A DNA stretch of 13,439 nucleotides from an uncultured Nitrososphaerota archaeon (GTDB lineage Archaea; Korarchaeota; Korarchaeia; Korarchaeales; Korarchaeaceae), in the NCBI GenBank assembly GCA_964480775.1, contig CAYZRF010000034.1:1-13439 (forward strand), given 5' to 3'. Below, piece after piece: positions 1-13,280 of this stretch (positions within the stretch are counted from its first letter, which is position 1; the number at the start of each line of letters is the position of its first letter). Below the pieces are notes generated by a model. It had not been told where the DNA came from and did not search any database. It was given only the letters and a program-made list of their open reading frames with translations. The translations under genes were made by a program, and so were the position numbers.

Positions 1-675
1 CTCATAAATGACGAATTCATACTTTCCAAATCCTAGAGGCCTTCCTCTCATCTTAATTATTTCCATCATCCTTTTTGGAGGACCAATGGAGGTTTCCGTC
101 AATTCTAATTTAATTAACGCATCCGTAATGAATTCTTCTACGCCATGTCCAACGGATGTCTCACCTACTGGAAGATCGGCTATTATTATGGCAGTTATTC
201 CCATATCCTTACATATTCTGTATAACGTGTTGTGGAAGAGAGCCCTTACATCCATAGGCATGAAGAGATTTGTGAGAGCCGTTATAGAGTCAATGACAAG
301 CCTTTTTGCACCGATTTCCTGGATTTTCTCCAGCATTTCATCAAGAACGGCCTCTACACTCGCTTTTTCAGACGCAGTAAATGCTTCTATAAAACGAAAG
401 AGCCCTTTAGATTCAAGGATTTCAAAATTCATGCCAAGTTGTGCCATGTACGAATAGAATTCCCTTTTAGATTCTGCAAATGAAACGTAAACTCCAGGCT
501 CCTTGTACTTACTAACCCCTTCATGTATGAATTTCGCTGCAAACGTGGATTTTCCAGTTCCTGGATTTCCTGCAAGTAGAACGATGCTGTTTCTGACAAA
601 ACCTCCATTTGTAATCTGGTCAAATCCTGGAATTCCAGTTGGAACGCTCTCTAGCTTCGAATCACCCACATTCAT
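1..675 (-). CDS. KaiC-like RecA-superfamily ATPase (single-domain archaeal KaiC/RadB-like type); 3' end runs off the window
   Basis: Absent from the ORF track because it has no stop inside the window. Hand translation of the minus strand from ATG (complement of 673-675) gives 225 uninterrupted codons: MNVGDSKLESVPTGIPGFDQITNGGFVRNSIVLLAGNPGTGKSTFAAKFIHEG...AKRLVIDSITAL...GVEEFITDALIKLE...MMEIIKMRGRPLGFGKYEFVIYE. Walker A GNPGTGKST lies at nt 544-570. A Walker B-like RLVIDS is present. The N-terminal TGIPGFDxxxxGG and C-terminal KMRG-x-(F/Y)xI motifs are typical of KaiC-family ATPases. The plus-strand ORFs 8..457, 232..483 and 503..736 are its shadows. Confidence 0.85.
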   Translation of the reverse strand, partial: MNVGDSKLESVPTGIPGFDQITNGGFVRNSIVLLAGNPGTGKSTFAAKFIHEGVSKYKEPGVYVSFAESKREFYSYMAQLGMNFEILESKGLFRFIEAFTASEKASVEAVLDEMLEKIQEIGAKRLVIDSITALTNLFMPMDVRALFHNTLYRICKDMGITAIIIADLPVGETSVGHGVEEFITDALIKLELTETSIGPPKRMMEIIKMRGRPLGFGKYEFVIYE

Positions 676-711
676 GTGGATACACTTCCGCTTAATAGTC
701 TCGAGTTTGTT

Positions 712-722
712 GATTTTTAAGG
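712..722 (-). promoter_or_regulatory. TATA-like box (minus-strand CCTTAAAAATC) upstream of the KaiC-like gene
   Basis: A/T-rich octamer TTAAAAAT, centred about 42 nt upstream of the ATG at 675. Spacing fits an archaeal promoter with a short leader. Sequence pattern only. Confidence 0.4.
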
Positions 723-731
723 TAAATGTTA

Positions 732-786
732 CTTAGAGTTAAATGTCATACGAGTTTTTATGAACTCTAAGAACTTAACGGTTAAC
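732..786. repeat. Two adjacent inverted repeats in the 230-nt spacer between paralog A and the KaiC-like gene
   Basis: Perfect 9-bp arms CTTAGAGTT (732-740) and AACTCTAAG (763-771), separated by 22 nt. Immediately after comes TTAAC-g-GTTAA (775-785). Verified base by base. Confidence 0.6.
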
Positions 787-905
787 TAAACCTCTTTAAG
801 AACAGATACTACTTGCGCCTGTAATGCATAACTCTTGCATTGTTTTTGTTTAGCTCATGGGGAAAGATCCTATCTCTGACAACTCACTCTTGGGAAAAAG
901 AGCAA

Positions 906-1898
906 CTAAAAGATTGGAAAGGGAATTTCTGAACCTAAAAGACCTGCCAACTTCTTTTTAAGATCCTCTAAGTCCTTAGCTTCGACCATCTCTATTCCAA
1001 ACGATTTTACAAAGCCCTTTGTCTCTTTTGAGAACTTTTTGGTTGAAGCGAGGACAAACCTCTTTTCTCCTCCTTCTGGCGATCTAGAGACATCTATAAT
1101 TTTTGTTATGAAAGGTGCAACTTCCTCTGGTGAGAGGGCTCCTTTTCCGCCGTAGATATCCACTAAGTATTCCTTCCCATCCTTCATGGCTCTAAGGGAA
1201 AAAGTGTGGGTGACCCCAGACATCCCCTTAACTGATGGCTTAACGGTTACGCTGAAGCCCTTGCTCTTCAGATCATCCGAAAACATTGATGGCTTAGCTA
1301 CAAGCTTAGAAAGCTCATCCAAGGCCTCTGGATTAAGCCTATAGGAATAGAGACCTTTTCTTTTTGCTTCTCTCTCAAGGAACCTATGCCTGTACTTTAT
1401 GCAAATGTACACCATCTCTGTTTGGAAGAAACTTCCACAAGACTTACACCTAAACATGTCTTCAATTAATTTGTATTCTTCCTCAGGCAATTTAAGTAGT
1501 TCCCCGCATTTGGGGCACTTCAAGCTGCCATCCTGCTGAACGAACTTGTCTACGAAGTCTACGTGTCCACATTTAATGTGTTTAATGGCATCTCCTTTCT
1601 CAAGAACTAAAGAACCACAAAAAGGACATGCAGGCTGGCTCATACGAACAGAAGAACCACAACGAGGACATATAACTTGTTCTCCAATCTTTTTCCTTAT
1701 AAGAATTCCTTGCTCTGCCAATTCCTCCAGAATTTTCTCAGAAGGGTCCAATCCTAAAGATTCTAACTCTCGATAGATATATCCTCTATATGGATCAAAT
1801 TCAGGTGTCAATTCATAATTTTGATGATCTAAAAGCCACTCTAGGAATATCCTAATGTCTTCTCTTTTGGAAACAACCGAAGTCAACATGCCAATCAC
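906..1898 (-). CDS. wHTH + multi-Zn-ribbon + alpha/beta C-terminal domain protein, paralog A (function unknown, regulator-like)
   Basis: The ORF begins at GTG (1898). The N-terminal alignment with paralog B (MLTSVVSKREDIRIFLEWLL vs MSTSKLFEREDVRTLLEWLL) favours ATG at 1889. An N-terminal helix-rich wHTH-like segment (ILEELAEQGILIRKK) is followed by CPRC...CPFC, HxxC...CPKC and CKSC...CIKY (nt 1392-1670). A conserved C-terminal domain follows (GVTHTFSLRA...YLVDIYGGKG...APFITKIIDV...FGIEMVEAKDLEDL). Confidence 0.85.
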   Translation of the reverse strand: MIGMLTSVVSKREDIRIFLEWLLDHQNYELTPEFDPYRGYIYRELESLGLDPSEKILEELAEQGILIRKKIGEQVICPRCGSSVRMSQPACPFCGSLVLEKGDAIKHIKCGHVDFVDKFVQQDGSLKCPKCGELLKLPEEEYKLIEDMFRCKSCGSFFQTEMVYICIKYRHRFLEREAKRKGLYSYRLNPEALDELSKLVAKPSMFSDDLKSKGFSVTVKPSVKGMSGVTHTFSLRAMKDGKEYLVDIYGGKGALSPEEVAPFITKIIDVSRSPEGGEKRFVLASTKKFSKETKGFVKSFGIEMVEAKDLEDLKKKLAGLLGSEIPFPIF

Positions 1899-1928
1899 AA
1901 ATGAACCTGTTATTTTTCAGAAACCATA

Positions 1929-1940
1929 TCTTTTAAAAAT
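1929..1940 (-). promoter_or_regulatory. TATA-like box for paralog A (minus-strand ATTTTTAAAAGA)
   Basis: Contains TTTAAAAGA, the same 9-mer found upstream of paralog B. It ends 31 nt upstream of GTG 1898 and 40 nt upstream of ATG 1889. Confidence 0.45.
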
Positions 1941-2040
1941 ATCCTAAAAAATTAGGATCATAATGCCCTGTCCACGTGTACAATCCATTCTTAAACTCAG
2001 AAAACATGTATTTATGACGTACCTACAAGGAATTCAGTTA

Positions 2041-2095
2041 AAGAAAAACGATTCGGCTTCAAACTCTGAGATAAGGATGATGACTCACTAGTCAT
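2041..2095 (-). terminator. Putative terminator after the GT2 gene
   Basis: A 6-bp stem ATGACT/AGTCAT with a 4-nt loop lies at 2080-2095, just after the stop codon (2098-2100). A minus-strand T5 run follows (plus-strand AAAAA at 2044-2048). Archaeal termination typically uses oligo-T. Confidence 0.4.
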
Positions 2096-2097
2096 TA

Positions 2098-3345
2098 TTA
2101 CTTCCAACGAATTTCCCTCTTGAGCAGACCGTCCAAATATCCTTTCAGACGAACCAACCCATGAATAGGCCTGTAAAATAGTATGGCCAGTGGCAAAACG
2201 AAGAGTACCCAAAATTCGCCTCTTTTTGGTGTTAAAATCCATGAAACAATTCCTAGGATGAGTTCGTTGATGAAGTAAAAGGGGATCATCAAGCCGTAAA
2301 CTGCAAAAGTAAGTTCGGGATGAAACGCTAGAAAATAAATTAACCAGATCAACTTCAAGCTAGTTGCCGCAAGATCATAAAAAACCATAGAAGGTACTCC
2401 AAGAAGGCCTGGGGTTCCAAAGAACGGATTGAATAGCAGGTCTCTGTGTTTGATAAGGGTTTCCAACTGCCCCTTTGACCACCTAATCCTCTGATTCATC
2501 CAATCTCTAAATGTCTCGGGGGCTCTTGTCCATGCAACTGCTTGCGGGGAAAACCTGACCCTCATCCTCGTTTTGTGTATTTTCAGTGTAAAATCGAAGT
2601 CTTCTGTTATAGTATCAGCGTCAAACATTCCAGTGGAAGTCAAGACTCTTCTCTTTGCCGCACCGTAGGCCCCAGGGATTATTAGGACGGTTCCTACAAG
2701 GCCATAAAACCTTCTTCCACTCTCCATACTTGTCATATATTCGTAGGCTTGAAGCTTGCACCAGAGAGATTCTCTATTAAGCACCTTAACGTTTCCCGCA
2801 ACGCCTCCTGTGTTAGGAAGCTGAAAGAACTTTACAAGTTCCCATAGGCTACCTCTTTCTATTAGCGTGTCTGCATCCATCACGACAACTATTTCACCTC
2901 TCGAAAACATCAACCCATAGTTCACTGCATATGCCTTTTTTCCACTTGGAGGCCTCCTCAGCAGCCTTATTTTTCCCTCTTTAGCGTATTTTGATGCTAT
3001 TTCATAGGTTCTGTCTGTTGAACCATCATCGACGACAATGACTTCCTTGTTTGGATACGGATCCTCAAGAACGGACAATATGCACCCCTCTATAGTCTCC
3101 TCCTCGTTATGAGCTGGGATTATCACTGAAATACTAGGAAAATAACTTTTCGTGAAGCCATATGGTCTAATTCTCCTGTATAGTTCGTGAAGGGGGAGCA
3201 CTATAGCCTTCGTAATCGTTCGAGTTAGGTCAAAGAGTATAGGAACAAGCAGGATGGAAATTGCTTGTTTGGGAGCGACTCCTAAGAAATTTAGGTATTC
3301 AAGGACTAAGTTCTTTACAAAATCCAAGACCATATGAATTCTCAC
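2098..3345 (-). CDS. Processive family-2 glycosyltransferase, PgaC/IcaA/NodC-like beta-glycan (probably hexosamine polymer) synthase, membrane-embedded
   Basis: 415 aa. Motifs: IIPAHNEE; VVDDGSTD (DDG at aa 106-108); DAD (nt 2869-2877, verified); TITEDFDF (TED at aa 247-249); PET...QRIRW (nt 2479-2493, verified). Has an N-terminal TM helix and about 3 C-terminal TM helices. Start is GTG 3345, directly after the upstream stop. An alternative ATG at 3333 is preceded by a GTGAG Shine-Dalgarno-like element (SD-like). Confidence 0.9.
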   Translation of the reverse strand: MRIHMVLDFVKNLVLEYLNFLGVAPKQAISILLVPILFDLTRTITKAIVLPLHELYRRIRPYGFTKSYFPSISVIIPAHNEEETIEGCILSVLEDPYPNKEVIVVDDGSTDRTYEIASKYAKEGKIRLLRRPPSGKKAYAVNYGLMFSRGEIVVVMDADTLIERGSLWELVKFFQLPNTGGVAGNVKVLNRESLWCKLQAYEYMTSMESGRRFYGLVGTVLIIPGAYGAAKRRVLTSTGMFDADTITEDFDFTLKIHKTRMRVRFSPQAVAWTRAPETFRDWMNQRIRWSKGQLETLIKHRDLLFNPFFGTPGLLGVPSMVFYDLAATSLKLIWLIYFLAFHPELTFAVYGLMIPFYFINELILGIVSWILTPKRGEFWVLFVLPLAILFYRPIHGLVRLKGYLDGLLKREIRWK

Positions 3346-4128
3346 TTACTCTACGACCCTAACCAAGAATTCGCAGTATGGATCTCCTCTAGAAATGCAC
3401 TTCCTTTCATCAACCGTGCAATCAGAGCCAAACACACCACTAAAGAACCCTGCTATAACCCCCCTGATAAACTGACTTCCCTTCATATCCCTTGAAAGAG
3501 CGCATTCAAAGTTCTTTTCCAGCCTAATTACAGCGATTTCATTGTCCAAGTCTATCTTGAAGGAAGATCCACTAACCCAACCCAAACTCTGAATTATGTC
3601 TAAGGCAGCCTGAATTAGCTCTTTGCCCTCAAGTCCGAGCCTTCTCTTCCATATCTCATAGGCTTCTCTGCCTCCTCCGTAACCCAGGTGATAAATGAAG
3701 ACCCTTCCGCCAGTTCCCCACCTCTTGTATATGTCCGCAAATATGCCAACGAGCCAATCAGCCCTGAAAAGCACCGCTCTCTCATCGAAGAACTCCAGCG
3801 TGGAGTGATGAACGTCTAAGAAAAGGGGCTTATCTAAAGCGGGAGTCCAAGCTATCTTTCTAACTCCTCCTACTTTTGCCAAGTCCGATGCAAGCTCATC
3901 TGGGTTGGTATCACCTAGATCTGCGAAAAAGCACCACCACGTGGCATTTGGCTCCTCGGACTTGTGATGAACCCCGTAAAGTATGTTGATCCCTCTCTTA
4001 GCTATCACATCAGAGACTTTGGCCAACATTCCTGGAATGTCTTCCATCAAAATCGAGACCTCTACCAGCTTCCTACCTTTGAGTTCAACAACCCTCCATA
4101 GAGGCAACTTGTGCATGGGATCAGGCAT
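3346..4128 (-). CDS. ACT domain + V4R (4-vinyl-reductase-type) small-molecule-binding domain protein
   Basis: 260 aa. The ACT-like beta-alpha-beta-beta-alpha-beta segment VEVSILMEDIPGMLAKVSDVIAKRGINILYG spans about nt 3850-4068. The C-terminal V4R pattern spans about nt 3355-3816 and ends in the hallmark C-x6-C-x7-C / GDPYCEF (CTVDERKCISRGDPYCEFLV). The stop TAA (3346-3348) is immediately followed by the GT2 start. Confidence 0.8.
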   Translation of the reverse strand: MPDPMHKLPLWRVVELKGRKLVEVSILMEDIPGMLAKVSDVIAKRGINILYGVHHKSEEPNATWWCFFADLGDTNPDELASDLAKVGGVRKIAWTPALDKPLFLDVHHSTLEFFDERAVLFRADWLVGIFADIYKRWGTGGRVFIYHLGYGGGREAYEIWKRRLGLEGKELIQAALDIIQSLGWVSGSSFKIDLDNEIAVIRLEKNFECALSRDMKGSQFIRGVIAGFFSGVFGSDCTVDERKCISRGDPYCEFLVRVVE

Positions 4129-4182
4129 CTCTTCCGCACTCCCTTTTTCTGATGAAGTTGAAAGGATAAAAAACTATACAAT

Positions 4183-5043
4183 TCAGCCCAGAATGAAGGT
4201 ATAGTATATCAAATTCAGGAAGAACAGTAACAACATGGAAACAGTTACCCTAGATCCTGTTTTGCCGTACATGGTTTCCACACCTCGCCATAACGTTATG
4301 AACTTCATCAACAGAGGGGAGATTAATGCAAACAATATGACGATCGAAAGAGTTAGGGGAGATAACTTTACCAAATGAGAATAAAATTGGAGAATGGGAA
4401 TCCCAAAAAGACCCAAAAATAACAAGTGAGCGAAATCTGCTGTAAGAACAATTTTCGAACCCTTTATGGCCTCAGAGAATTCAGGTTTACTTATTAACAT
4501 GCCAGCAAGCAGACCAATAGCAAGACTTTGTGCTATGAAAAGCATTGTGCCTAACAATAAGCCAAAGAAGCCCCTTAGAAAGGGTAAGTTCTGAAATAAT
4601 GTTGGAGGCAAGAAGAAGTTCGCAATTCTCTCGCCAAGAGCCGATAAAGCTAATCCGAACTCCAAACTGTAGCCCTGTCTTGCAACCAATGACGAAAAAA
4701 CAGAAATTAATGTCCCAACAGCAAACACCTTCCAAACTAGAATTCTAACAGGAGTATTTGATACCTTTTGGAAGAATTCCCTCGCTTTAGCTTCAGAGAA
4801 GGGCGTCAGGATGGAGGTAAATATGCTTGGAGCTCTTAATTGCTCAACTCTTCTATCTTTCTTTTCAACCCTGGGAGGCTCAACAAAAGAAAAAGCTTCT
4901 AAAAGCTCTGCTTGAAGATTAACTACAGCTCTCATGAGATCTATTGCCTCATCTAACTGAGAGTTTGTCGAAGGTGCGCTGACGTATTCCAGCTTGTCTC
5001 TAAGATTCATCATCATCCCTTGGGATATTAGAACCACTTCCAT
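4183..5043 (-). CDS. Multi-pass (about 5 TM) membrane protein with a roughly 100-aa cytoplasmic helical N-terminus, unknown family
   Basis: 286 aa. Hydrophobic segments: VRILVWKVFAVGTLISVFSSLVA, FFGLLLGTMLFIAQSLAIGLLAGMLI, FAHLLFLGLFGIPILQFY, LTLSIVILFALISPLLMKFITL, VTVSMLLLFFLNLIYYTFILG. The topology resembles Yip1-type proteins, but I cannot verify that. Alternative Met starts lie at aa 10-12. Confidence 0.75.
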   Translation of the reverse strand: MEVVLISQGMMMNLRDKLEYVSAPSTNSQLDEAIDLMRAVVNLQAELLEAFSFVEPPRVEKKDRRVEQLRAPSIFTSILTPFSEAKAREFFQKVSNTPVRILVWKVFAVGTLISVFSSLVARQGYSLEFGLALSALGERIANFFLPPTLFQNLPFLRGFFGLLLGTMLFIAQSLAIGLLAGMLISKPEFSEAIKGSKIVLTADFAHLLFLGLFGIPILQFYSHLVKLSPLTLSIVILFALISPLLMKFITLWRGVETMYGKTGSRVTVSMLLLFFLNLIYYTFILG

Positions 5044-5139
5044 ATTATAAAAGTATGCAACTAGAAACTGTTCTTGATTATATCAATGACAAAGAGTGCA
5101 TCATCTATGGCAATCAAAACCACGCAACATAATAGAAAC

Positions 5140-6441
5140 TTAAGCGTATTCTAGCTTGCTTTGTATTTTCTCCTTTACATCTCTTATTTTCCTCAGTAAT
5201 GGGATAAATCTCTCTCCTCCTTCTTTCTTAGTCAAGCTCATAGCTAACATCTCCATTTGCTCTACAACATTAAGAAGACTCTTGTAAAATTCAGGACCAG
5301 GCTCAACAGCCTTATCGGCCATCTTTTCTTCGATTTCTCTTATCTTTTTGAAACTTGCAGCTAACTCTCGATGTTCTCTAGGTAGGACTTCTTCTATGTC
5401 AACTTCTGGAGCCGAAACTCTCCTTGTTTCTGGGACAAGAGCTTTAGTTTCTACGGGAACTGGGAGATGAATCTCAGATTCTATATGATCCGCAAGTCTT
5501 TTCTTCAGATCGTTAATATCTCCAGCCTCGATAATCTCTATACCAAAGGATTTGGCAATGTTCTTTGCATCATCTGAAACTCTTTGCGTCGAAGCTAAAA
5601 TGTATCTTCTTTGTCCCTCTTTTCCAGGCATCCCTGAAAGATCTATAACTTTTGTTATGAAAGGAGCTACGTTTTCCGAAGAAAGAATACCTTTTCCGCC
5701 ATATATGTCTACTAAATACTCAGTTCCGTTCTTTTTAGCCCTCAACGAGAAAGTATGCGTAACTCCAGATTTACCTCTCACTGAAGGCTTTCCTACGACC
5801 TTAAATCCTCTATTTTCCAGCTCTCCTGAGAACATTGATGGCCAGAAAATCAGCTCAGATAGTTTTCTTAATGCGTCGGGTTTTATTTTGTAGGAGTAAA
5901 GGGTCTTCATCTTTCCTTCTTTTTCCTTGAACTTATGATGACATTTAACACAGAGATATACTTTCTCGGGTGCTTCAAAGAAGTTGCCGCAAGATTTACA
6001 CTTGAAAATATCTCCAAGTCTTCTATAATCCTTACCAATCAGTCTAAGAGTCTTCCCACAACTTGGACATTTGAGGCTGCCGTCTGGCTGTAGGAACTCT
6101 TCCTCAAAACCAACGTAACCGCAGCCATAGTGCTCGATAACTTCTCCTTTCTGAAGATTGGAAGAACCACAATACGAACATGCTTGCTGGGTTATGTGAA
6201 GGGGGGATTCACACTTCGGACATACCAAGTATTCTCCTACCTTTTCTTTTGTCAGAATTCCTTGTTTCGCAAGTTCTTCTAGGATTTTACCGCTAGGATC
6301 TAATCCTAACAACTCTAATTCAGGGTAAATGTAGCCTCTAGATGGATGCAGTTCAGGTGAGAGTTCCATATCTTGGTTCTCTAGCAGCCATTCGAGTAGT
6401 GTTCTGACATCTTCCCTTTCAAAGAGTTTTGATGTCGACAT
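5140..6441 (-). CDS. wHTH + multi-Zn-ribbon + alpha/beta C-terminal domain protein, paralog B, with an extra C-terminal helical extension
   Basis: 433 aa, colinear with paralog A over about 320 aa. Cys/His ligand set: CPKC...CSYC, HxxC...CPSC, CKSC...CVKC (nt 5941-6222). A 52-aa hand-aligned stretch (KPSV..IDLS) is 42/52 identical to paralog A. The C-terminal roughly 110 aa (nt 5143-5469) has no counterpart in A. Confidence 0.9.
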   Translation of the reverse strand: MSTSKLFEREDVRTLLEWLLENQDMELSPELHPSRGYIYPELELLGLDPSGKILEELAKQGILTKEKVGEYLVCPKCESPLHITQQACSYCGSSNLQKGEVIEHYGCGYVGFEEEFLQPDGSLKCPSCGKTLRLIGKDYRRLGDIFKCKSCGNFFEAPEKVYLCVKCHHKFKEKEGKMKTLYSYKIKPDALRKLSELIFWPSMFSGELENRGFKVVGKPSVRGKSGVTHTFSLRAKKNGTEYLVDIYGGKGILSSENVAPFITKVIDLSGMPGKEGQRRYILASTQRVSDDAKNIAKSFGIEIIEAGDINDLKKRLADHIESEIHLPVPVETKALVPETRRVSAPEVDIEEVLPREHRELAASFKKIREIEEKMADKAVEPGPEFYKSLLNVVEQMEMLAMSLTKKEGGERFIPLLRKIRDVKEKIQSKLEYA

Positions 6442-6466
6442 ATGGATCCCTTGAAGTTTTCCAACT

Positions 6467-6475
6467 TCTTTTAAA
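6467..6475 (-). promoter_or_regulatory. TATA-like box for paralog B (minus-strand TTTAAAAGA)
   Basis: Its 3' edge is 26 nt upstream of ATG 6441, which implies a leaderless or near-leaderless mRNA. The same 9-mer lies upstream of paralog A. Confidence 0.5.
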
Positions 6476-6577
6476 GGGAAACTAATCTTAAAAGATTTCC
6501 TTTCTACAGGAGTTTTCTGCTAATGGCTTCACTCTAACTACCAACTTTAACACAGAATAAGAAACTATTTTGGCAAG

Positions 6578-6587
6578 TTTTAATTAA
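6578..6587 (+). promoter_or_regulatory. TATA-like box (TTTTAATTAA) for the GTPase gene
   Basis: Centred about 29 nt upstream of ATG 6612 (about 23 nt from TTG 6606). Consistent with a leaderless transcript from the divergent 6442-6605 spacer. Confidence 0.45.
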
Positions 6588-6605
6588 CAGACAGTTGTCC
6601 ATTAC

Positions 6606-8186
6606 TTGATCATGAAAAGAGAAACAGAGGAAGGCAAAATAGAGTACAAGCTTAAGCTAAACGCACAAACAGAGGAAAGATTGCAAAAACTGGCAACACA
6701 ACTTGCTTACAGGTTAGGTGAAGGCGGTGGGGAGGCCTTTTACGAGCTTGGAGTCTCTGATGATGGAGAACCGCTTGGTTTGACTGAAGAAGAGGCAAGG
6801 GAATCGTTTAAAATTATGGAACAAATAAGTAAGACGGTAGGAGCTTCCTTTATAGTCGTTAGAAAGGAAAAAGCGAAGAGAGGTTATGTGTATGAACTTC
6901 TTGTGAGGAAAACAGTTGATTCTCCACCTATTCAAATATCTGTAGCGCTTCTGGGAAACGTAGATGCAGGAAAATCCACCCTAAAGGGCGTACTAGTTTA
7001 CGGAACCCTTGATGACGGCGATGGAAAGGCAATGAGCTTGGTTGCCAAGTACTTACACGAGCTAAAGTTCAGAAGGTCATCATCCGTTTCAGTTCATGTC
7101 CTTGGTTTCAATGAAATGGGAGAGTCCATCAATGACTCCCTTAGAACTTACGATGAGGCCAAGGTGTACTTAGAAGGGTCAAAAATAGTCACTCTGATAG
7201 ACCTTGCTGGTCATGAGAGGTATTTGAAAACAACGATGAGAGGAGTTCTTGGACATCTCCCTGACTACACTTGCATGGTAGTTGGTGCCAACGCGGGTCC
7301 AATAGGCACGTTTAGAGAACACTTAGGAATGACCGTTGCCCTTGGAATACCTTGCTTCGTTGTGATCACAAAGGTAGATATGGCTCCCCAAGCAGTGCTG
7401 GAGAGAAACTTGGAAAAGGTTATACACCTCTTAAAGTTACCAGGAATTAACAAAATACCCTTCATAATAAGAAGCAAGAATGATGCAGCTATTGCAGCAA
7501 GACACATGCCCCATGGAAGGGTAGCCCCCATATTCCTTATCTCAAATGTCACTGGTCAGGGCTTGCAGGAACTCAAAGCATTTCTCAACATGCTCCCACC
7601 AAAAATAGACTGGCACGAGAGGGCTAAAGGAAAGTTCCTGTGCTACATCGATGAGAAGTTTGATGTGTCTGGAGTTGGGCTTGTGGTTGCGGGTTTGGTG
7701 GAGGAGGGAACCGTTAAGAGCGGAGACCGAGTGCTTCTTGGACCCTTTGATGATGGATCCTTCAGAACTGTAAGGGTTAAGTCAATAGAGGTGAACAGAG
7801 TCCGAGTTGAAAGGGCTGAGGCAGGACAAATCGCAGCTTACGCAATTACAAACGCCAAGTATGAGGAAATAAGAAGAGGAATGGTATTGCTAGATCTTGA
7901 TGCCACGCCTGTAGCTGTAAGAAAGTTTAGGGCTCACATAAGGGTTCTGCATCACCCAACAACCATAAAAGTCGGATATGAGCCAGTTATTCAGATGAAA
8001 ACGATAAGGCAAGCCGCAAGACTCGTAAATACCACGAATAAATTCCTGAGAAGCGGAGACACCGATATGGTTGAGTTTTACTTCATTCTTAGACCAGAGT
8101 ATGTCAGGAAGGGAGATGTATTCTTCTTCAGGGAAGGTAGGACAAAGGGTATAGGAACGGTGGTTGGGATTAGTGGAACATCCTAA
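6606..8186 (+). CDS. GTPBP1-like (GP-1 family) translational-type GTPase, EF-1alpha/SelB-related
   Basis: 526 aa. G1 GNVDAGKST (nt 6954-6980, verified), G3 DLAGHERY, G4 TKVD (T instead of N, as I recall for GTPBP1 proteins). Has a roughly 110-aa N-terminal extension, then beta-barrel domains II/III (GVGLVVAGLVEEGTVKSGDRVLLGP...). The track start is TTG 6606; ATG 6612 is equally or more likely. Confidence 0.85.
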   Translation: MIMKRETEEGKIEYKLKLNAQTEERLQKLATQLAYRLGEGGGEAFYELGVSDDGEPLGLTEEEARESFKIMEQISKTVGASFIVVRKEKAKRGYVYELLVRKTVDSPPIQISVALLGNVDAGKSTLKGVLVYGTLDDGDGKAMSLVAKYLHELKFRRSSSVSVHVLGFNEMGESINDSLRTYDEAKVYLEGSKIVTLIDLAGHERYLKTTMRGVLGHLPDYTCMVVGANAGPIGTFREHLGMTVALGIPCFVVITKVDMAPQAVLERNLEKVIHLLKLPGINKIPFIIRSKNDAAIAARHMPHGRVAPIFLISNVTGQGLQELKAFLNMLPPKIDWHERAKGKFLCYIDEKFDVSGVGLVVAGLVEEGTVKSGDRVLLGPFDDGSFRTVRVKSIEVNRVRVERAEAGQIAAYAITNAKYEEIRRGMVLLDLDATPVAVRKFRAHIRVLHHPTTIKVGYEPVIQMKTIRQAARLVNTTNKFLRSGDTDMVEFYFILRPEYVRKGDVFFFREGRTKGIGTVVGISGTS

Positions 8187-8262: not shown

Positions 8263-8481
8263 CTATTCCTCTATTTCAAAAACCTTGTTTCTGGAGGTTG
8301 TCCCACGAATTAGTCGCACCTTAGAAGGGCTAACTCCGAAATGCTTGGCTATTATTTTAATGGCTTCCTCATTCGCCTTTCCTCTTTCAGGAGAGGATCT
8401 AACCCTCACAACTATCTCTCCATATTCCTCGGTTATGCTCGGAGACTTGGATTTTGGAATTACCTTAACTCGAATCCTCAA
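8263..8481 (-). CDS. DUF167 / YggU-family (UPF0235) small protein
   Basis: 72 aa with a TTG start. The sequence RIRVKVIPKSK...IVVRVRSSPERGKANEEAIKIIAKHFGVSPSKVRLIRGTTSRNKVFEI matches the remembered family signature (P-x-x-GKAN ... G-x-t-S-R-x-K). The plus-strand ORF 8255..8530 is its antisense shadow. Confidence 0.8.
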   Translation of the reverse strand: MRIRVKVIPKSKSPSITEEYGEIVVRVRSSPERGKANEEAIKIIAKHFGVSPSKVRLIRGTTSRNKVFEIEE

Positions 8482-8869: not shown

Positions 8870-9109
8870 ATGACTAGGGTGAAGGTCACTAGAAGCTATC
8901 AGGTCACGATACCCAAAGAGATAAGGGAAAGAATAGGGCTAAAGGAAGGAGATTACTTACAAGTTGAAGTTGACGACGAAGGAAGGATAATAATGTCTAA
9001 ATCTAGGAGAGAAAGGAGGACTTTGAGAGCTGGTAGGCCTCTTAAGCCTGATGAGATAGAGAAGCTCATAGAGCTTGGAATCAAGAGAAGTCTCATTTCT
9101 GGTGAGTAA
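8870..9109 (+). CDS. vapB: AbrB/SpoVT-fold antitoxin (VapB-like)
   Basis: 79 aa. VKVTRSYQVTIPKEIRERIGLKEGDYLQVEVDDEGRIIM is a classic swapped-hairpin AbrB/MazE N-terminal motif. The basic/acidic C-terminal tail, small size and overlap with a PIN gene fit an antitoxin. Confidence 0.85.
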   Translation: MTRVKVTRSYQVTIPKEIRERIGLKEGDYLQVEVDDEGRIIMSKSRRERRTLRAGRPLKPDEIEKLIELGIKRSLISGE

Positions 9110-9542
9110 ATTGGCATCAGCAGTGTTGGATACCAACGTCATCGTGTACGACACATTCGAGGACTCGTTGTATCACGAGATGGCCAGAGAACTCCTGGAC
9201 TCCCTCGACGTGTGGGTCCTACCTCTGATAGTGCTATACGAGTATGTCTGGTTGATGAAAGAGCTAGGCGTTAACCTTGAGGACATCTCAGCTAAAGTGT
9301 ATGAGTACGCTTGGGACCCTAAGGCTAGGGTTACTTCAGGAGGAAAGGACGCAGTTAGGTGGGCTTTAGCGGATCTCATGGAGGAGAGGCTATCCGCATC
9401 TAGGTTCAACGATAAGGTGGTATTGTCAGTAGCCGAGAGGGAAGGAATTCCTCTAGCTACTTTTGACAGGGGGCTGAGAGTTCAGGCTCATAGGGTAAAC
9501 GTAGAGGTGCTCCCTATCTCTATTGATGTGCATGAATCTTGA
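9102..9542 (+). CDS. vapC: PIN-domain ribonuclease toxin (VapC-like)
   Basis: The track ORF starts at 9075. The likely start is GTG 9102, overlapping the vapB stop by 8 nt (GTGAGTAA), or TTG 9111. Conserved PIN acidic residues in expected contexts: VLDTNVIVY, LYEYVW, FNDKVV, LATFD. Confidence 0.85.
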   Translation: MSKLASAVLDTNVIVYDTFEDSLYHEMARELLDSLDVWVLPLIVLYEYVWLMKELGVNLEDISAKVYEYAWDPKARVTSGGKDAVRWALADLMEERLSASRFNDKVVLSVAEREGIPLATFDRGLRVQAHRVNVEVLPISIDVHES

Positions 9543-9917: not shown

Positions 9918-12254
9918 ATGAACTCTTATCGGTGCATTGTTCTCCTAATTGTGCTTTTCTTAACTAATATTACTCCTTTGTTCTCCCAACGAGAAGTTTC
10001 CAGCTTTTTGGAATTATATGGAGTAAGAGCAGTTCAACTGGACTTGGACTTAATTTATGACCCAAACCAGGTCGAATTTAGAAGGAGAGTTGATCTTGTA
10101 CTTGATAGACTGATTTCGATAGGTGCTAATTTAGTTCTCCTTCAAGTTTTTCAAGATCCAGATGGAGACGGTTCCGCCAACGGAGTCTACTTCAAGACAG
10201 ACATGGCTCCAAGTTTAGATGCTTTAGGAACATTCTTGGAGGAGGCAAGAGAGAGGAACATCAAGATTTTTGCGTGGATGACCACACTAACATGTTCTTG
10301 GGTATTAGAGGAACATCCAAACTGGGAAATCTTGTCCTTCGATCCCGATTCAGGGAGTTATGTCACGGGGAAGTACTGGTACAGGAGAGCTTCACCATTC
10401 TGTGACGACTTTGTGGCATATTTAAGGGATCTTTATGCTGATCTTGCCTCCTACCCGCTAGACGGAATTCTTCTACAAGATGATCTCTACTTAGGCGAGT
10501 GGGAAGATTTCAGCGAATGGGCTAGATCAGCATTTAGGAAAGAATACGGATTAGAACTGACACCCTCGTTGTTAAAGATGGGAGGTTGGAGGGAAAAATG
10601 GATTAATTGGAAAGCAGAGCGACTTATGCACATTGCAAGGATTTTAGAGGAAACAGTTAAGGAAAGGAGACCTGAAGCCATCTTTTCAATCGATGTGTAC
10701 TCTGATGTGCTCATATATGATGACGCCTCTTCTTGGCTAGCTCAAGACAAGAACCTCCTTGCAAATTCGGATTTTTTCATGGTGATAATGGCCTATCCAT
10801 TTTTGGAAAATGCAGATAATCCAGAAGAGTGGATGGAAGCTGTAGCAAGGGAAGCCGTTACTGTATTTGGAAAAGGAAAAACTCTGATAAAGGTACAATC
10901 TTACGACTGGAAAAATGAATTGTGGATCCCTTCTAATGTTTTTAGTTCGATCATAGAAGCAGCATATGAAGGAGGAGCCGTAAATGTGGGGTACTATCCT
11001 GAAGACCCGTTTTCAGGAATTCCAGACGCTCAAACAGTTAGGAATGCCTTCTTAGTTTATGGAACAACTCCATCAAGACCCGTTCATGTTCTTATGCTTT
11101 CTAACTCAGTAGATTTGCCAGCGGCAAGAAAACTTGCTGTCAACATCGGAAGGCACGGAGTATTGGTGACATTAACTAACGAAAATGTAAACATTTCTCG
11201 AGGTGCTATGATAATTCTTGGGGGTCCTAAAGCATATGAGGGCATAGGAGATATTTCAAACGGTTATTTGCCAAAACCCCAGGCTGAAAAGCTTATTTCA
11301 GAGGAAGATTCGATGGTTTCGATTGTTAGCAGGAAGAATGAAATAGACTATGTGATAATAGCCGGACACACAAGAATAGAAACTGCTAGAGCAGCGTCAG
11401 AATTTCCTGCGCCATGGATAAGGCTTACAGCCCTTTCTGACTACATTCTGGGTTGTAGACCAGTGAGACTAGGACCTGTAGTTTATTCTTATCAGGGGGT
11501 TACTTTCGAAGACCTGAGCAAGGTAAACGCAACAATTCTCGTCGTAGATCCAGATGATTCGAGATTAAGCAAGGAGGACACAGTTAAACTCCACGAGCAG
11601 GGGAAGACTGTTATAGCATATCTAAGCATAGGGCAAGCAGAATCTTACAGATCATACTGGGACGATAAATGGGAACTGGATACACCTCGCTGGCTGGGAA
11701 CAGAGGATCTGGAGTGGCCTGAGAACTATTGGGTTAGGTACTGGGACCAAGAATGGAAGAATATTGTGTTTACTTGCTTGCATGAAATTATCGAAAAAGG
11801 CTTCGATGGAGTCTTATTGGACAGAGTTGACGCATACGAGTATTGGGAGGACAAAGGCGTGCTAGACGCCAAACAGAAGATGCTGAATTTCGTTTTAGAA
11901 ATATCAGCGAGGGCAAAGCAAGAGAGATGTTTCCTCATAATTCCTCAAAACGCTGAGGAGCTGATAGAGGACCATCATTACTTGGAAGCGATAGATGGGG
12001 TAAGTTCTGAAGATGTCTGGACCATTGGAAACGATGAGAGACCTCAAGATGAGGTTGAACTCAGGTTGAACACACTAGATAGAATTATCTCACGTGGAAA
12101 ATTAGTATTGGTCTTAGATTATCCTTCTTCGGCTAAAATGAGGGAGATATTCTGCTTAAAGGCGAGGGAAAGGGGATATATTCCATATTCCTCCTCAATC
12201 GACCTTTCAGGCATAAATTACGATTTCCTAAATAGGTGCTGGGAAGCCCCCTAA
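9918..12254 (+). CDS. Secreted two-module polysaccharide-processing protein: PgaB-C-terminal-like (GHL13) domain + alpha/beta linker domain + GH114/TM1410-MJ1477-like domain
   Basis: 778 aa. Signal peptide: MNSYRCIVLLIVLFLTNITPLFSQ. Module 1 (about nt 10020-11012): AVQLDLDLIYDP...LISIGANLVLLQVFQDPDGDGSANGVYFKT...IKIFAWM...LDGILLQDDLYL, which matches my memory of the PgaB C-terminal domain (VDLDYVYDPD, LQAFADPDGDG, AWMP, DGILFHDD). Module 3 (about nt 11460-12212): ILVVDPDD...VIAYLSIGQAESYRSYW...NYWVRYWDQEWKNI...GFDGVLLDRVDAYEYW, the GH114/TM1410-type signature. The middle domain (about nt 11070-11417) is unassigned. No C-terminal anchor. Confidence 0.85.
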   Translation: MNSYRCIVLLIVLFLTNITPLFSQREVSSFLELYGVRAVQLDLDLIYDPNQVEFRRRVDLVLDRLISIGANLVLLQVFQDPDGDGSANGVYFKTDMAPSLDALGTFLEEARERNIKIFAWMTTLTCSWVLEEHPNWEILSFDPDSGSYVTGKYWYRRASPFCDDFVAYLRDLYADLASYPLDGILLQDDLYLGEWEDFSEWARSAFRKEYGLELTPSLLKMGGWREKWINWKAERLMHIARILEETVKERRPEAIFSIDVYSDVLIYDDASSWLAQDKNLLANSDFFMVIMAYPFLENADNPEEWMEAVAREAVTVFGKGKTLIKVQSYDWKNELWIPSNVFSSIIEAAYEGGAVNVGYYPEDPFSGIPDAQTVRNAFLVYGTTPSRPVHVLMLSNSVDLPAARKLAVNIGRHGVLVTLTNENVNISRGAMIILGGPKAYEGIGDISNGYLPKPQAEKLISEEDSMVSIVSRKNEIDYVIIAGHTRIETARAASEFPAPWIRLTALSDYILGCRPVRLGPVVYSYQGVTFEDLSKVNATILVVDPDDSRLSKEDTVKLHEQGKTVIAYLSIGQAESYRSYWDDKWELDTPRWLGTEDLEWPENYWVRYWDQEWKNIVFTCLHEIIEKGFDGVLLDRVDAYEYWEDKGVLDAKQKMLNFVLEISARAKQERCFLIIPQNAEELIEDHHYLEAIDGVSSEDVWTIGNDERPQDEVELRLNTLDRIISRGKLVLVLDYPSSAKMREIFCLKARERGYIPYSSSIDLSGINYDFLNRCWEAP

Positions 12255-12304
12255 TATCTTACTGAATTTAACACGAATAGTTACATGGCTCAACCTTAGA
12301 ACTT

Positions 12305-12325
12305 CCTTTTATCTCTCTAAAAAAG
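12305..12325. terminator. Bidirectional T-run/A-run terminator region between convergent genes
   Basis: CTTTT-atctctcta-AAAAAG. TTTT (12307-12310) serves the plus-strand gene. The A6 run (12319-12324) gives T6 on the minus strand downstream of the DUF166-like stop. Confidence 0.4.
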
Positions 12326-12378
12326 TGCACCATACTTGAGAACAGCAAAAGTAATAGTAGTTGACGACAACAACTGTT

Positions 12379-13086
12379 TCACGCATTTCCTGCCGTGCGT
12401 AAGGCTTCTTCAACTGCCTCTCTTATTAAATACTGGGATTTATGCAGTATGGCGTCCCCTAGCTCCGAATCTACCTTCATGCTTGCCAGACATGGGTAAG
12501 AGTGGTGAGCCTTAGCTAGCTCCTCCCAAAGCTTTTCTCTGGGCTCGATATGTGTTCCAACCAGCTTCTCAGCTATGTAGCAAGTAGAGCCACAGGGAGA
12601 TCCTTTTAAGACATCTATCTTCACAATTCGTCCCCCATCAACCCCTACCTTAAGTCGAGGTCTTCCAAACTTACTGGCGAACTCATCTATGATGGGATTC
12701 CCTATTTCCTTCAAGCTACAGAGGGGTTTTGGAAAGGCTGAAACAACACCTTTTTCCATAAATTCCTGCTCGAGCTGTCTCCTTAGCCCAGGAGGAACCC
12801 AACCAGGATCATCGATAGCCACAATGACTGCCTTTGCTCCTGCCTTCTCCACGATCTCGGGTAGGAGAGTCTGAAGCTCAGCAGGAATCCCTAAGGATAG
12901 GATAAGATCACACCGAGGTACATCTGGAAGAAAGTTTGAATCTAAATCATCTAGAATATTAAACGGTACCTCTCCAAACTCATGTATACCCCAAAACCAC
13001 TCCGAATATCCTTCTTTACAGATATGATTGATAATCCTTCTCCCGTAGAGGTCATCCTCCATTATCATGGCGAAAACTCTCAGCAC
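12379..13086 (-). CDS. DUF166-like Cys-containing protein (uncharacterised; some family members are annotated as thymidylate-synthase-like)
   Basis: 235 aa, GTG start. N-terminal strand plus YGRRI, then KGSPCGSTCYIAEKLVG and HHSYPCLASM motifs as I remember for DUF166. The family call is from memory only. The ORF itself is long with coherent codon usage. Confidence 0.6.
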   Translation of the reverse strand: MLRVFAMIMEDDLYGRRIINHICKEGYSEWFWGIHEFGEVPFNILDDLDSNFLPDVPRCDLILSLGIPAELQTLLPEIVEKAGAKAVIVAIDDPGWVPPGLRRQLEQEFMEKGVVSAFPKPLCSLKEIGNPIIDEFASKFGRPRLKVGVDGGRIVKIDVLKGSPCGSTCYIAEKLVGTHIEPREKLWEELAKAHHSYPCLASMKVDSELGDAILHKSQYLIREAVEEALRTAGNA

Positions 13087-13280
13087 CTTTCTTCGTTCTC
13101 AATAAATGCAGGAAATACATAAAAAACTCTCATTTCTTATATTACAGCGTATAGATTGCCTTAAGAAGATATCTAAAAGTACTATTAGCTAAGATGCCTG
13201 AAATAAGAGTTAAACAAATCTATCCCTTATCAGACTGCTCCTAATCAAACGGTATTCTCCTTTATGCTGATGATATGTCC

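Follow-up and report, generated by a model that had tools for sequence, protein, structure and literature searches.

A membrane glycosyltransferase and TackOD1 proteins in a Korarchaeota contig: a candidate archaeal synthase-dependent exopolysaccharide locus

The window analysed here is the whole 13,439-bp contig CAYZRF010000034.1 (assembly GCA_964480775.1). It encodes a membrane glycosyltransferase of family 2 (GT2) that lies between two proteins of the TackOD1 family (PF18551). The window is best explained, with moderate confidence, as an archaeal synthase-dependent exopolysaccharide locus with TackOD1-centred control. The claim at the level of the module, i.e. that a core made of the synthase and TackOD1 controls polysaccharide output, is considered probable from comparative sequence data. 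The synthase would polymerise a nucleotide sugar and extrude the chain through its own transmembrane (TM) channel, and TackOD1 would be a dedicated output element switching polysaccharide production on upstream inputs. The window proteins were scanned against Pfam and NCBIfam. They have their closest relatives in metagenome-assembled genomes (MAGs) labelled Candidatus Korarchaeota or Thermoproteota; a hydrothermal-vent metagenome is the source of the related contig L004. An initial annotation had read six co-oriented minus-strand genes as a possible self-contained module. All six are present where it placed them (Table 1), and a core of GT2 and TackOD1, often joined by KaiC, stands as a recurrent association; the six-gene set is not a conserved unit. 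Calling these six genes a control system is an interpretation.

The GT2 protein matches PF00535, PF13632 and PF13641 and carries the motifs VVDDGS (D106, D107), DAD (D157, D159), TED (E248, D249) and QRIRW (285-289). All four are invariant in an alignment of 46 homologues, in agreement with the full processive motif set (DDG, DAD, TED, QRIRW) announced by the initial annotation. Two N-terminal and three C-terminal TM helices give the protein the topology of PgaC, whose size it shares, as had also been proposed. The best NCBIfam match is PgaC_IcaA (181 bits), followed by the XrtG-associated glycosyltransferase, MftF, NodC and CelA. Dolichyl-phosphate (Dol-P) sugar transferases score at most 30 bits (AglJ 27, Dol-P hexose transferase 22). 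In alignments with PDB sequences, BcsA runs through QxxRW into the TM region, and the dolichyl-phosphate mannose synthase 5mlz aligns with residues 65-160 only. The AlphaFold2 (AF2) model of the GT2 has a pLDDT of 92.7, with helices at 2-59 and 307-407. Foldseek relates this model to hyaluronan synthases (HAS) of Chlorella and Xenopus, to BcsA and to Chs1, with E-values of 1e-12 to 1e-17 and query TM-scores of 0.5-0.76. A position among dolichyl-phosphate sugar transferases, the outcome that the initial annotation had named as contrary to its own proposal, did not hold in profile scores, alignments or Foldseek. Sequence and predicted fold assign the GT2 to the class of processive membrane synthases, within which it is neither a PgaC/IcaA equivalog nor a demonstrable PgaC orthologue. 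The C-terminal tail of the GT2 was considered as a TackOD1-specific feature and rejected: it is also conserved in bacterial homologues that lack TackOD1.

The two proteins on either side of the synthase had been described as winged helix-turn-helix (wHTH) and zinc-ribbon proteins. Both belong to a named, if uncharacterised, family. Protein A matches PF18551 with an E-value of 6.4e-26 (91.5 bits) and protein B with 1.4e-38 (132.8 bits), for a gathering threshold of 32. They are paralogous (58% identity) and stand-alone, without a REC domain. Protein B consists of a wHTH (1-60), a three-zinc ribbon (63-186), a PD-(D/E)xK/Mrr-like domain (190-321) and a helical tail. Its zinc ligands are eleven cysteines and one histidine (C74/77, C88/91, H104/C107, C125/128, C148/151, C164/167), ordered as CxxC...CxxC, HxxC...CxxC and CxxC...CxxC. 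Protein A also has the wHTH, the three zinc-ribbon sites and the Mrr-like C-terminal domain, with a tyrosine instead of the last cysteine. The AF2 model of residues 1-335 of protein B (pLDDT 86) has a winged-helix N-terminus, a beta-rich zinc domain and an alpha/beta C-terminus. The C-terminal domain is matched by Foldseek to AF1548, NucS/EndoMS, the nuclease domains of Can2/Card1/Cdn1, and MspJI, and the C-termini of TackOD1 relatives match Pfam Mrr_cat.

In the literature, TackOD1 (PF18551, arCOG06883) is an output domain of response regulators, with stand-alone forms also listed. It is diagnosed by eleven conserved cysteines in five CxxC motifs and one HxxC; its function was called obscure and its occurrence in type IV pilus loci was mentioned (Galperin et al. 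2018, PMC5847659). No link with a glycosyltransferase was found in papers naming TackOD1 or arCOG06883, although earlier literature on KaiC hubs may already mention such neighbourhoods. A homologue search with the single sequence of protein B returned only 7 proteins. In the profile search, REC-TackOD1 fusions are abundant and dominated by Nitrosopumilaceae. Architectures among long relatives include REC-TackOD1-Mrr_cat and TackOD1 with a TrmB wHTH, as well as additions of iREase and rubrerythrin. The commonest form is about 320 aa long and has all three parts. At 50% identity the family comprises 2,477 clusters, in a collection of 1.84 billion representatives. TackOD1 is thus rare, and its adjacency to the GT2 by chance is negligible.

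Gene neighbourhoods were compared in a limited sample of lineages, drawn from MAGs and metagenome contigs and not amounting to a census. TackOD1 is encoded near the GT2 in 8 of the 10 archaeal GT2 lineages sampled. Korarchaeota relatives, whose GT2 is 83-92% identical to that of the window, keep the hydrolase, the GTPase, TackOD1, the five-TM (5-TM) protein, the ACT-V4R protein, the GT2, KaiC and a 125-aa gene. At 41-50% GT2 identity, TackOD1 is still at most three genes away in several archaeal lineages. Part of the loci (L005, L007, L041, L046) came from a scan of genome contigs with a GT2 profile, in which the matches listed were mostly bacterial and PgaC-like. Two TackOD1 copies precede the GT2 in Brockarchaeota (L005), and the partner of the GT2 is a REC-TackOD1 protein in Nitrosopumilaceae (L007). 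In L086 and L087 the order is two or three KaiC genes, two Roadblock genes, GT2, a sorted protein, an EpsH-like protein and TackOD1. In L088/89, KaiC and GT2 are followed by convergent TackOD1 and Arf/Ras GTPase genes. Aigarchaeota contigs place a GT2-TackOD1 pair between the two phenylalanyl-tRNA synthetase subunit genes (L091 10001-12239, L092 3816-6054), whose products match PF01409 and B5/tRNA_synthFbeta. In the Bathyarchaeia locus L090, the gene for a 435-aa KaiC-like-TackOD1 fusion (11193-12500, minus strand) converges on the GT2 gene and runs into its 3' end, amid genes for PCNA, primase, MCM and GINS. The P-loop region of this fusion reads CLSGDNSAN, which suggests that its KaiC-like domain is probably inactivated.

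The association extends to Bacteria. Four-gene operons of Bacteroidota (Saprospiraceae, L041 2642-7978; Chryseobacterium taichungense, L046 5763-11107) encode, in this order, a large protein without Pfam match, an HlyD-like adaptor, TackOD1 and GT2. The last three genes overlap by 4 nt or are 2-10 nt apart, and the large first protein is possibly an outer-membrane component. The bacterial TackOD1 proteins bear an N-terminal extension of about 120 aa, and the TED motif of the bacterial GT2 reads LDGD.

The reverse approach, anchored on TackOD1, gave a concordant picture. Five closely related TackOD1 sequences were used to scan metagenomes, and a gene of the GT2 clade occurs in 13 of the 27 loci retrieved and in 10 of the 12 that have at least 2 kb on both sides, the positive loci L096-L101 and L105 probably representing one lineage. 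The two exceptions among the 12 are decayed versions of the window locus. Anchoring on REC-TackOD1 yielded three further loci, two of which are operons (L120 and L121/122), ordered GT2 / CE4 / REC-TackOD1 and REC-TackOD1 / GT2 / CE4, where CE4 is a deacetylase of carbohydrate esterase family 4. In the third, L123, REC-TackOD1 is kept with a histidine kinase and there is no GT2. The conservation of the gene neighbourhood, which the initial annotation had put forward as a check, is therefore established for TackOD1 by the 8 archaeal lineages, the 10 metagenome loci and the two Bacteroidota, and it also holds for KaiC in most lineages.

KaiC accompanies the GT2-TackOD1 pair in most non-thaumarchaeal lineages. 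In the window, the KaiC gene leaves the contig at its left end and the N-terminal 225 aa are encoded; they match PF06745 with an E-value of 3.7e-63 (213 bits) and contain an intact Walker A motif, GNPGTGKST. Full-length orthologues have 466 aa and two KaiC domains (L001 11426-12826, L004 12374-13774). An identity as the cyanobacterial clock KaiC was rejected, with 140 bits for a cut-off of 408. In L001, a gene of 125 aa (12819-13196, plus strand) starts before KaiC ends, with an overlap of 8 nt at the stop codon. Its product has a weak, sub-threshold match to NitrOD5 (PF11537, E 0.014), a family that published work places among the archaeal DEATH-like adaptor domains that accompany KaiC hubs. 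Arf/Ras, Roadblock and V4R genes are found among the neighbours in related loci. The inputs to TackOD1 would differ by lineage. The state of the KaiC ATPase would be read here and in Bathyarchaeia-like lineages, and phosphorylation of REC in ammonia-oxidising archaea. Elsewhere, the input would come from small Arf/Ras-like GTPases together with Roadblock and V4R.

The other two members of the six-gene set are less widely distributed. The ACT-V4R protein matches PF01842 (8e-8), PF02830 (2e-11) and the MopR sensor domain (2.6e-4), and its stop codon abuts the GT2 start. Full-length homologues are encoded beside the GT2 in L001-L004, L095 and L085. One more, in L091 (4066-4857), lies 5 kb upstream of the GT2-TackOD1 pair. 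Conservation of this neighbour, which the initial annotation had proposed to check, extends to three lineages and is not general. The 5-TM protein has about five hydrophobic segments in hydropathy profiles after a soluble N-terminus of about 95 aa, and has no match in Pfam, NCBIfam or PADLOC. Its true start is probably near Met10-12 (about position 5016); the L001 orthologue has 273 aa. Homologues occur only in the Korarchaeota relatives L001-L004 (46-70% identity), so that the 5-TM protein is not a conserved neighbour beyond them, and it diverges fast, with 46% identity where the GT2 has 83%. Kinship with the membrane or sorted proteins beside the GT2 in L086/L087 was considered, and no relation was found. 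In the window, the likely direct, post-translational partners of the synthase would be the ACT-V4R protein, whose translation is coupled to that of the GT2, and the 5-TM protein.

Several neighbours point to a polymer acting outside the cell. The hydrolase of the window has an N-terminal hydrophobic segment (3-25), a GHL13 domain (40-360; PF14883, 9e-52) and a GH114 domain (535-763; PF03537, 6e-33), and is predicted to be secreted or anchored. The GHL13 domain is homologous to the C-terminal domain of PgaB/BpsB, which binds and hydrolyses de-N-acetylated poly-N-acetylglucosamine (dPNAG). The hydrolase matches the PgaB profile TIGR03938 with 4e-53 and 181 bits, below the cut-off of 322; PDB sequence matches are the PgaB C-terminus (6e-32) and BpsB (6e-35) for GHL13, and TM1410 (3e-46), PelA and Ega3 for GH114. 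The gene stays near the cluster in L001-L004 and L093, and its product is likely a polymer-processing partner. No CE4 domain was found by Pfam in the window; CE4 deacetylases are encoded in the operons of L120 and L121 (Nitrososphaerota, Nitrosotalea). The initial annotation had recognised no known partner of such synthases. This stands for PgaD and IcaD, which have no Pfam or NCBIfam match among the neighbours, and for the receptors PilZ, GGDEF I-site, MshEN and GIL, none of which appeared in Pfam scans of nine window proteins. It does not stand for the PgaB-like hydrolase, which is encoded beyond the six-gene stretch and had been overlooked.

Taken with the CE4 and the EpsH-like and sorted proteins of related loci, and with the HlyD-like adaptors and unassigned upstream proteins of the Bacteroidota operons, the GHL13/GH114 hydrolase indicates an exported polymer, probably hexosamine-based. 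The product would most likely be a beta-linked hexosamine polymer of the poly-N-acetylglucosamine (PNAG) or chitin-oligomer type, trimmed by the hydrolase outside the cell and also processed by a deacetylase in other lineages. In L086 (5230-6415) and L087 (7071-8245), the gene after the GT2 encodes about 220 aa, beginning with a signal peptide and ending with a TM helix and a basic tail. An Exosortase_EpsH-like membrane protein of 172-176 aa and then TackOD1 come next. This looks like a dedicated sortase-substrate pair inside a polysaccharide locus.

Several observations weigh against the explanation preferred here. The evidence is comparative throughout, and the links are made by gene neighbourhood. 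The equivalog threshold of PgaC/IcaA (TIGR03937) lies far above the score of the GT2 (422.3 against 180.8 bits, over residues 66-303 only). The top Foldseek match is PcManGT (E 1e-18), a mannosyltransferase for glycans whose synthase-like fold is minimal. On the short contig L085, an ACT-V4R homologue is encoded beside the GT2 and TackOD1 is absent. In L124-L126 (6001-7287), a GT2 belonging to the clade of the window GT2 (44% identity, 24 contigs) stands by itself amid genes for helicase, RtcB and topoisomerase, and neither TackOD1 nor KaiC nor V4R is encoded within 6 kb of it. Conversely, TackOD1 persists without GT2 in L093, L094 and L123, which means that its role goes beyond a synthase encoded next to it. 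The canonical D...(D/E)xK residues are missing from the Mrr-like domain; the family conserves GxSGxxHxF and a following aspartate instead. No operator motif shared between the intergenic regions of the window and those of L001/L004 was found. Finally, a protein partner would account better than a transcription factor for two arrangements: GT2 and TackOD1 genes lying tail to tail in several lineages, and TackOD1 sitting inside the operon in bacteria.

These observations bear on the mode of action of TackOD1. In the first scheme, the wHTH, zinc-ribbon and Mrr-like domains would make TackOD1 proteins nucleic-acid-binding switches acting on the promoters of the cassette. Transcriptional control is favoured by the presence of three types of nucleic-acid-binding domain and by the persistence of TackOD1 where the GT2 is deleted, and action on DNA is proposed tentatively from the sequences and the model. 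The Mrr_cat and TrmB additions of relatives lean the same way. In the second scheme, TackOD1 would be a cytoplasmic subunit that docks on the synthase and gates it according to the state of REC, KaiC or a GTPase, doing where c-di-GMP is absent what PilZ, PgaD, PelD or Alg44 do elsewhere, the wHTH and the inactivated nuclease fold being re-used as modules that bind proteins or ligands. Three observations favour direct action on the synthase: the bacterial TackOD1 gene is internal to its operon and translationally coupled, a minimal two-gene cassette exists, and the nuclease site is degenerate. A gene between those of the HlyD-like adaptor and the GT2 occupies the typical position of a receptor subunit, and a minimal cassette of GT2 and TackOD1 amid housekeeping genes occurs in both Aigarchaeota and Bathyarchaeia. 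The retention of the tail-to-tail order, the non-conserved catalytic residues of the nuclease and the variable recognition-helix positions of the wHTH across the family are also in line with a docking subunit. In addition, REC-BcsA fusions, known from Methanobacterium, are a precedent for the coupling of REC with a synthase and illustrate that archaeal two-component systems can act on synthases as proteins. Nevertheless, a check of 20 long family members revealed no fusion of GT2 with TackOD1, all three domains are of classical nucleic-acid-binding types and TackOD1 is kept where the GT2 is absent. Direct action on the synthase, like the docking and gating subunit that embodies it, is a possibility that we take seriously without expecting it. 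The more specific proposal of a synthase-gating receptor or adaptor that binds a PNAG-like synthase, as an archaeal and Bacteroidota counterpart of PilZ/PgaD, is rather unlikely.

The locus is variable among close relatives. Protein A is present in L004 and absent in L001-L003, and either TackOD1 copy may be lost. The locus L093 (Ga0180300_10000192) has a single TackOD1 gene of 329 aa directly followed by KaiC, and the stretch comprising 5-TM, ACT-V4R, GT2 and TackOD1 protein A is absent, as though recombination between the two TackOD1 paralogues had removed or inserted it. L093 is 94-96% identical to the window in nucleotides over the hydrolase-GTPase flank and 83% on the KaiC side. A protein B cluster member of 328 aa (P0396) is encoded in a named Korarchaeota MAG. 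In L004 (7632-10981), the GT2 is split into 70 and 326 aa and protein B is reduced to a remnant. L094 holds a TackOD1 remnant (6178-6489), and L095 (499-2215) a GT2 remnant of 110 aa without a 5-TM gene. Assembly errors are possible in these decayed relatives. The ensemble looks like a surface-polysaccharide locus of variable presence and absence.

This variability also suits another explanation, in which the window would be a variable genomic islet. Recombination between paralogues would move or delete the cassette, the coupling of the six genes would be overstated, and KaiC with TackOD1 would form an independent pair with other targets. The single TackOD1 gene followed by KaiC in L093, the 328-aa variant of the MAG, the broken genes of L004 and L095 and the GT2-less REC-TackOD1 of L123 with its kinase all agree with it. 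Presence/absence polymorphism is, however, usual for surface-polysaccharide loci, and the islet leaves unexplained why at least eight archaeal lineages and two Bacteroidota have GT2 and TackOD1 side by side; we consider it improbable. The least probable alternative makes the GT2 a non-processive or short-chain glycosyltransferase for N-glycans, lipid-linked or envelope glycans, like PcManGT, with regulatory neighbours that reflect the control of envelope remodelling or co-inheritance: the PcManGT match, the score under the PgaC/IcaA cut-off and the fact that archaea, having no outer membrane, are not expected to have export partners that prove secretion agree with it, but QRIRW and TED are invariant, the phmmer alignment of PcManGT ends just before QRIRW where that of BcsA continues through, the HAS and BcsA Foldseek matches cover the TM region, and the hydrolase, CE4, exosortase and HlyD-like neighbours indicate an exported polymer.

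A synthase-dependent locus with TackOD1-centred control can be compared with several known systems. It resembles PgaABCD and IcaADBC in the size, 2+3 TM topology and motif set of the GT2, in its best NCBIfam match, in the nearby GHL13 domain (that of the PgaB C-terminus) and in the CE4 of the thaumarchaeal operons. Unlike them, the window encodes no PgaD/IcaD, PgaA porin or cyclic di-GMP (c-di-GMP) machinery, its hydrolase has an extra GH114 and no CE4, and the regulators are TackOD1, KaiC and ACT-V4R. With HAS, BcsA and chitin synthase, the GT2 shares a predicted GT-A domain, interface helices and a TM bundle, with QxxRW on an interface helix, but it is much smaller (415 aa), is 16-21% identical to them and has no PilZ or BcsB-like partner. 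In contrast to the published TackOD1 response regulators, the domain of the window is stand-alone and comes with the Mrr-like C-terminal domain. Archaeal KaiC-like ATPases are reportedly signalling hubs. The related loci resemble these in having KaiC beside Roadblock/LC7, V4R and small GTPases, as well as the KaiC-like-TackOD1 fusion, and differ from them in having a polysaccharide synthase as a defined enzymatic output. The c-di-GMP receptor subunits (PilZ of BcsA, Alg44, PelD, PgaD, YdaK, PssE) would be analogous in role only, as dedicated regulators encoded in or beside a synthase operon that couple input signals to polymer output, with no relation in sequence or fold to the regulators of the window. 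Enzymes of c-di-GMP metabolism are not known in these archaea. A literature search on archaeal PNAG or synthase-dependent systems found nothing relevant. The synthase and the hydrolase are thus of a known kind (PNAG, HAS or cellulose type), and the regulatory side is not.

Little is known about the synthesis and control of biofilm matrix polysaccharides in archaea, and the c-di-GMP logic of bacteria is lacking there. In Nitrosopumilaceae, a common response regulator has TackOD1 as its output, and for the KaiC-like ATPases, which have been put forward as signalling hubs of archaea, few outputs are known. If the proposal is correct, TackOD1, thaumarchaeal REC-TackOD1 and some KaiC hubs would gain a testable output, namely polymer production, and the abundant ammonia-oxidising archaea would control a partly deacetylated hexosamine matrix via a two-component system. 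If TackOD1 gates the synthase, this would be the first defined biochemical output for archaeal KaiC hubs and for the main response regulator of marine ammonia oxidisers. The Bacteroidota carriers could serve as genetic models for TackOD1, Chryseobacterium for example being a genetically tractable entry.

The REC-TackOD1 locus without GT2, L123, offers a further comparison. An ATPase gene borders REC-TackOD1 there (6113-7918, minus strand) and codes for a protein of about 600 aa with PIN, T2SSE-like and KH domains. An open reading frame of nearly the same length lies beside the GT2 in L007 (8023-9831, minus strand). If the two are homologous, L123 is a GT2-less version of the L007 locus, which could explain the report of arCOG06883 in type IV pilus loci.

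The features of the window are collected in Table 1. Intergenic distances on the minus strand are 96 nt from protein B to 5-TM, 54 nt from 5-TM to ACT-V4R, 0-12 nt from ACT-V4R to GT2, 199 nt from GT2 to protein A and 230 nt from protein A to KaiC. The 5-TM, ACT-V4R and GT2 genes are a tight unit. A single operon covering all six genes is unlikely, because the gaps of 96, 199 and 230 nt split off the others. The window has two TATA-like boxes. The one directly upstream of the 5-TM gene is kept in L001 and L004 as ACTTTTATAAT / ATTTTTATAAT and is the putative promoter of the tight unit. The other is retained in L001, L004, L093 and L095 and is a putative separate promoter of KaiC. The hexamer GTTTCT was considered as an operator; it is enriched in the intergenic regions of the window (4 observed for 0.36 expected) but not conserved in L001 or L004, and was rejected.

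Table 1. Annotated features of the 13,439-bp window
Feature	Coordinates	Strand	Match or remark
KaiC-like ATPase fragment	1-675	-	PF06745
TATA-like box CTTAAAAAT	713-721	-	precedes the KaiC start codon by about 40 nt
TackOD1 protein A, 330 aa	906-1898	-	PF18551
Membrane GT2 synthase, 415 aa	2098-3345	-	411 aa if the ATG at 3333 is used
ACT + V4R ligand-binding protein, 260 aa	3346-4128	-	
5-TM membrane protein, family-less	4183-5043	-	
TATA-like box TTTTATAA	5045-5052	-	directly upstream of the 5-TM gene
TackOD1 protein B, 433 aa	5140-6441	-	PF18551
EF-Tu/EF-1alpha/SelB-like GTPase, 526 aa	6606-8186	+	divergent from TackOD1 protein B
Small DUF167/YggU-family protein	8263-8481	-	1e-21
AbrB/MazE-type antitoxin	8870-9109	+	PF04014, 1e-16
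PIN-domain toxin	9075-9542	+	PF01850, 7e-13
Two-domain GHL13 + GH114 glycoside hydrolase, 778 aa	9918-12254	+	
DUF166 protein	12379-13086	-	7e-52; weak match to the DfsP selenoprotein family

Neither Rfam nor a tRNA scan gave a match in the window. A function in anti-phage defence was considered and rejected, PADLOC being negative with a 23-bit P-loop match of KaiC to mad8 as the sole match. The DUF167/YggU and DUF166 genes have no evident connection with the cluster. The antitoxin and PIN-toxin genes overlap by 35 nt and form a VapBC-like pair, located between the genes for the GTPase and the hydrolase. L093 has this pair; L001-L004 do not. The GTPase is always adjacent in Korarchaeota loci and is 94-96% identical in relatives whose GT2 is 83-92% identical; it is probably a paralogue of a housekeeping translational GTPase.

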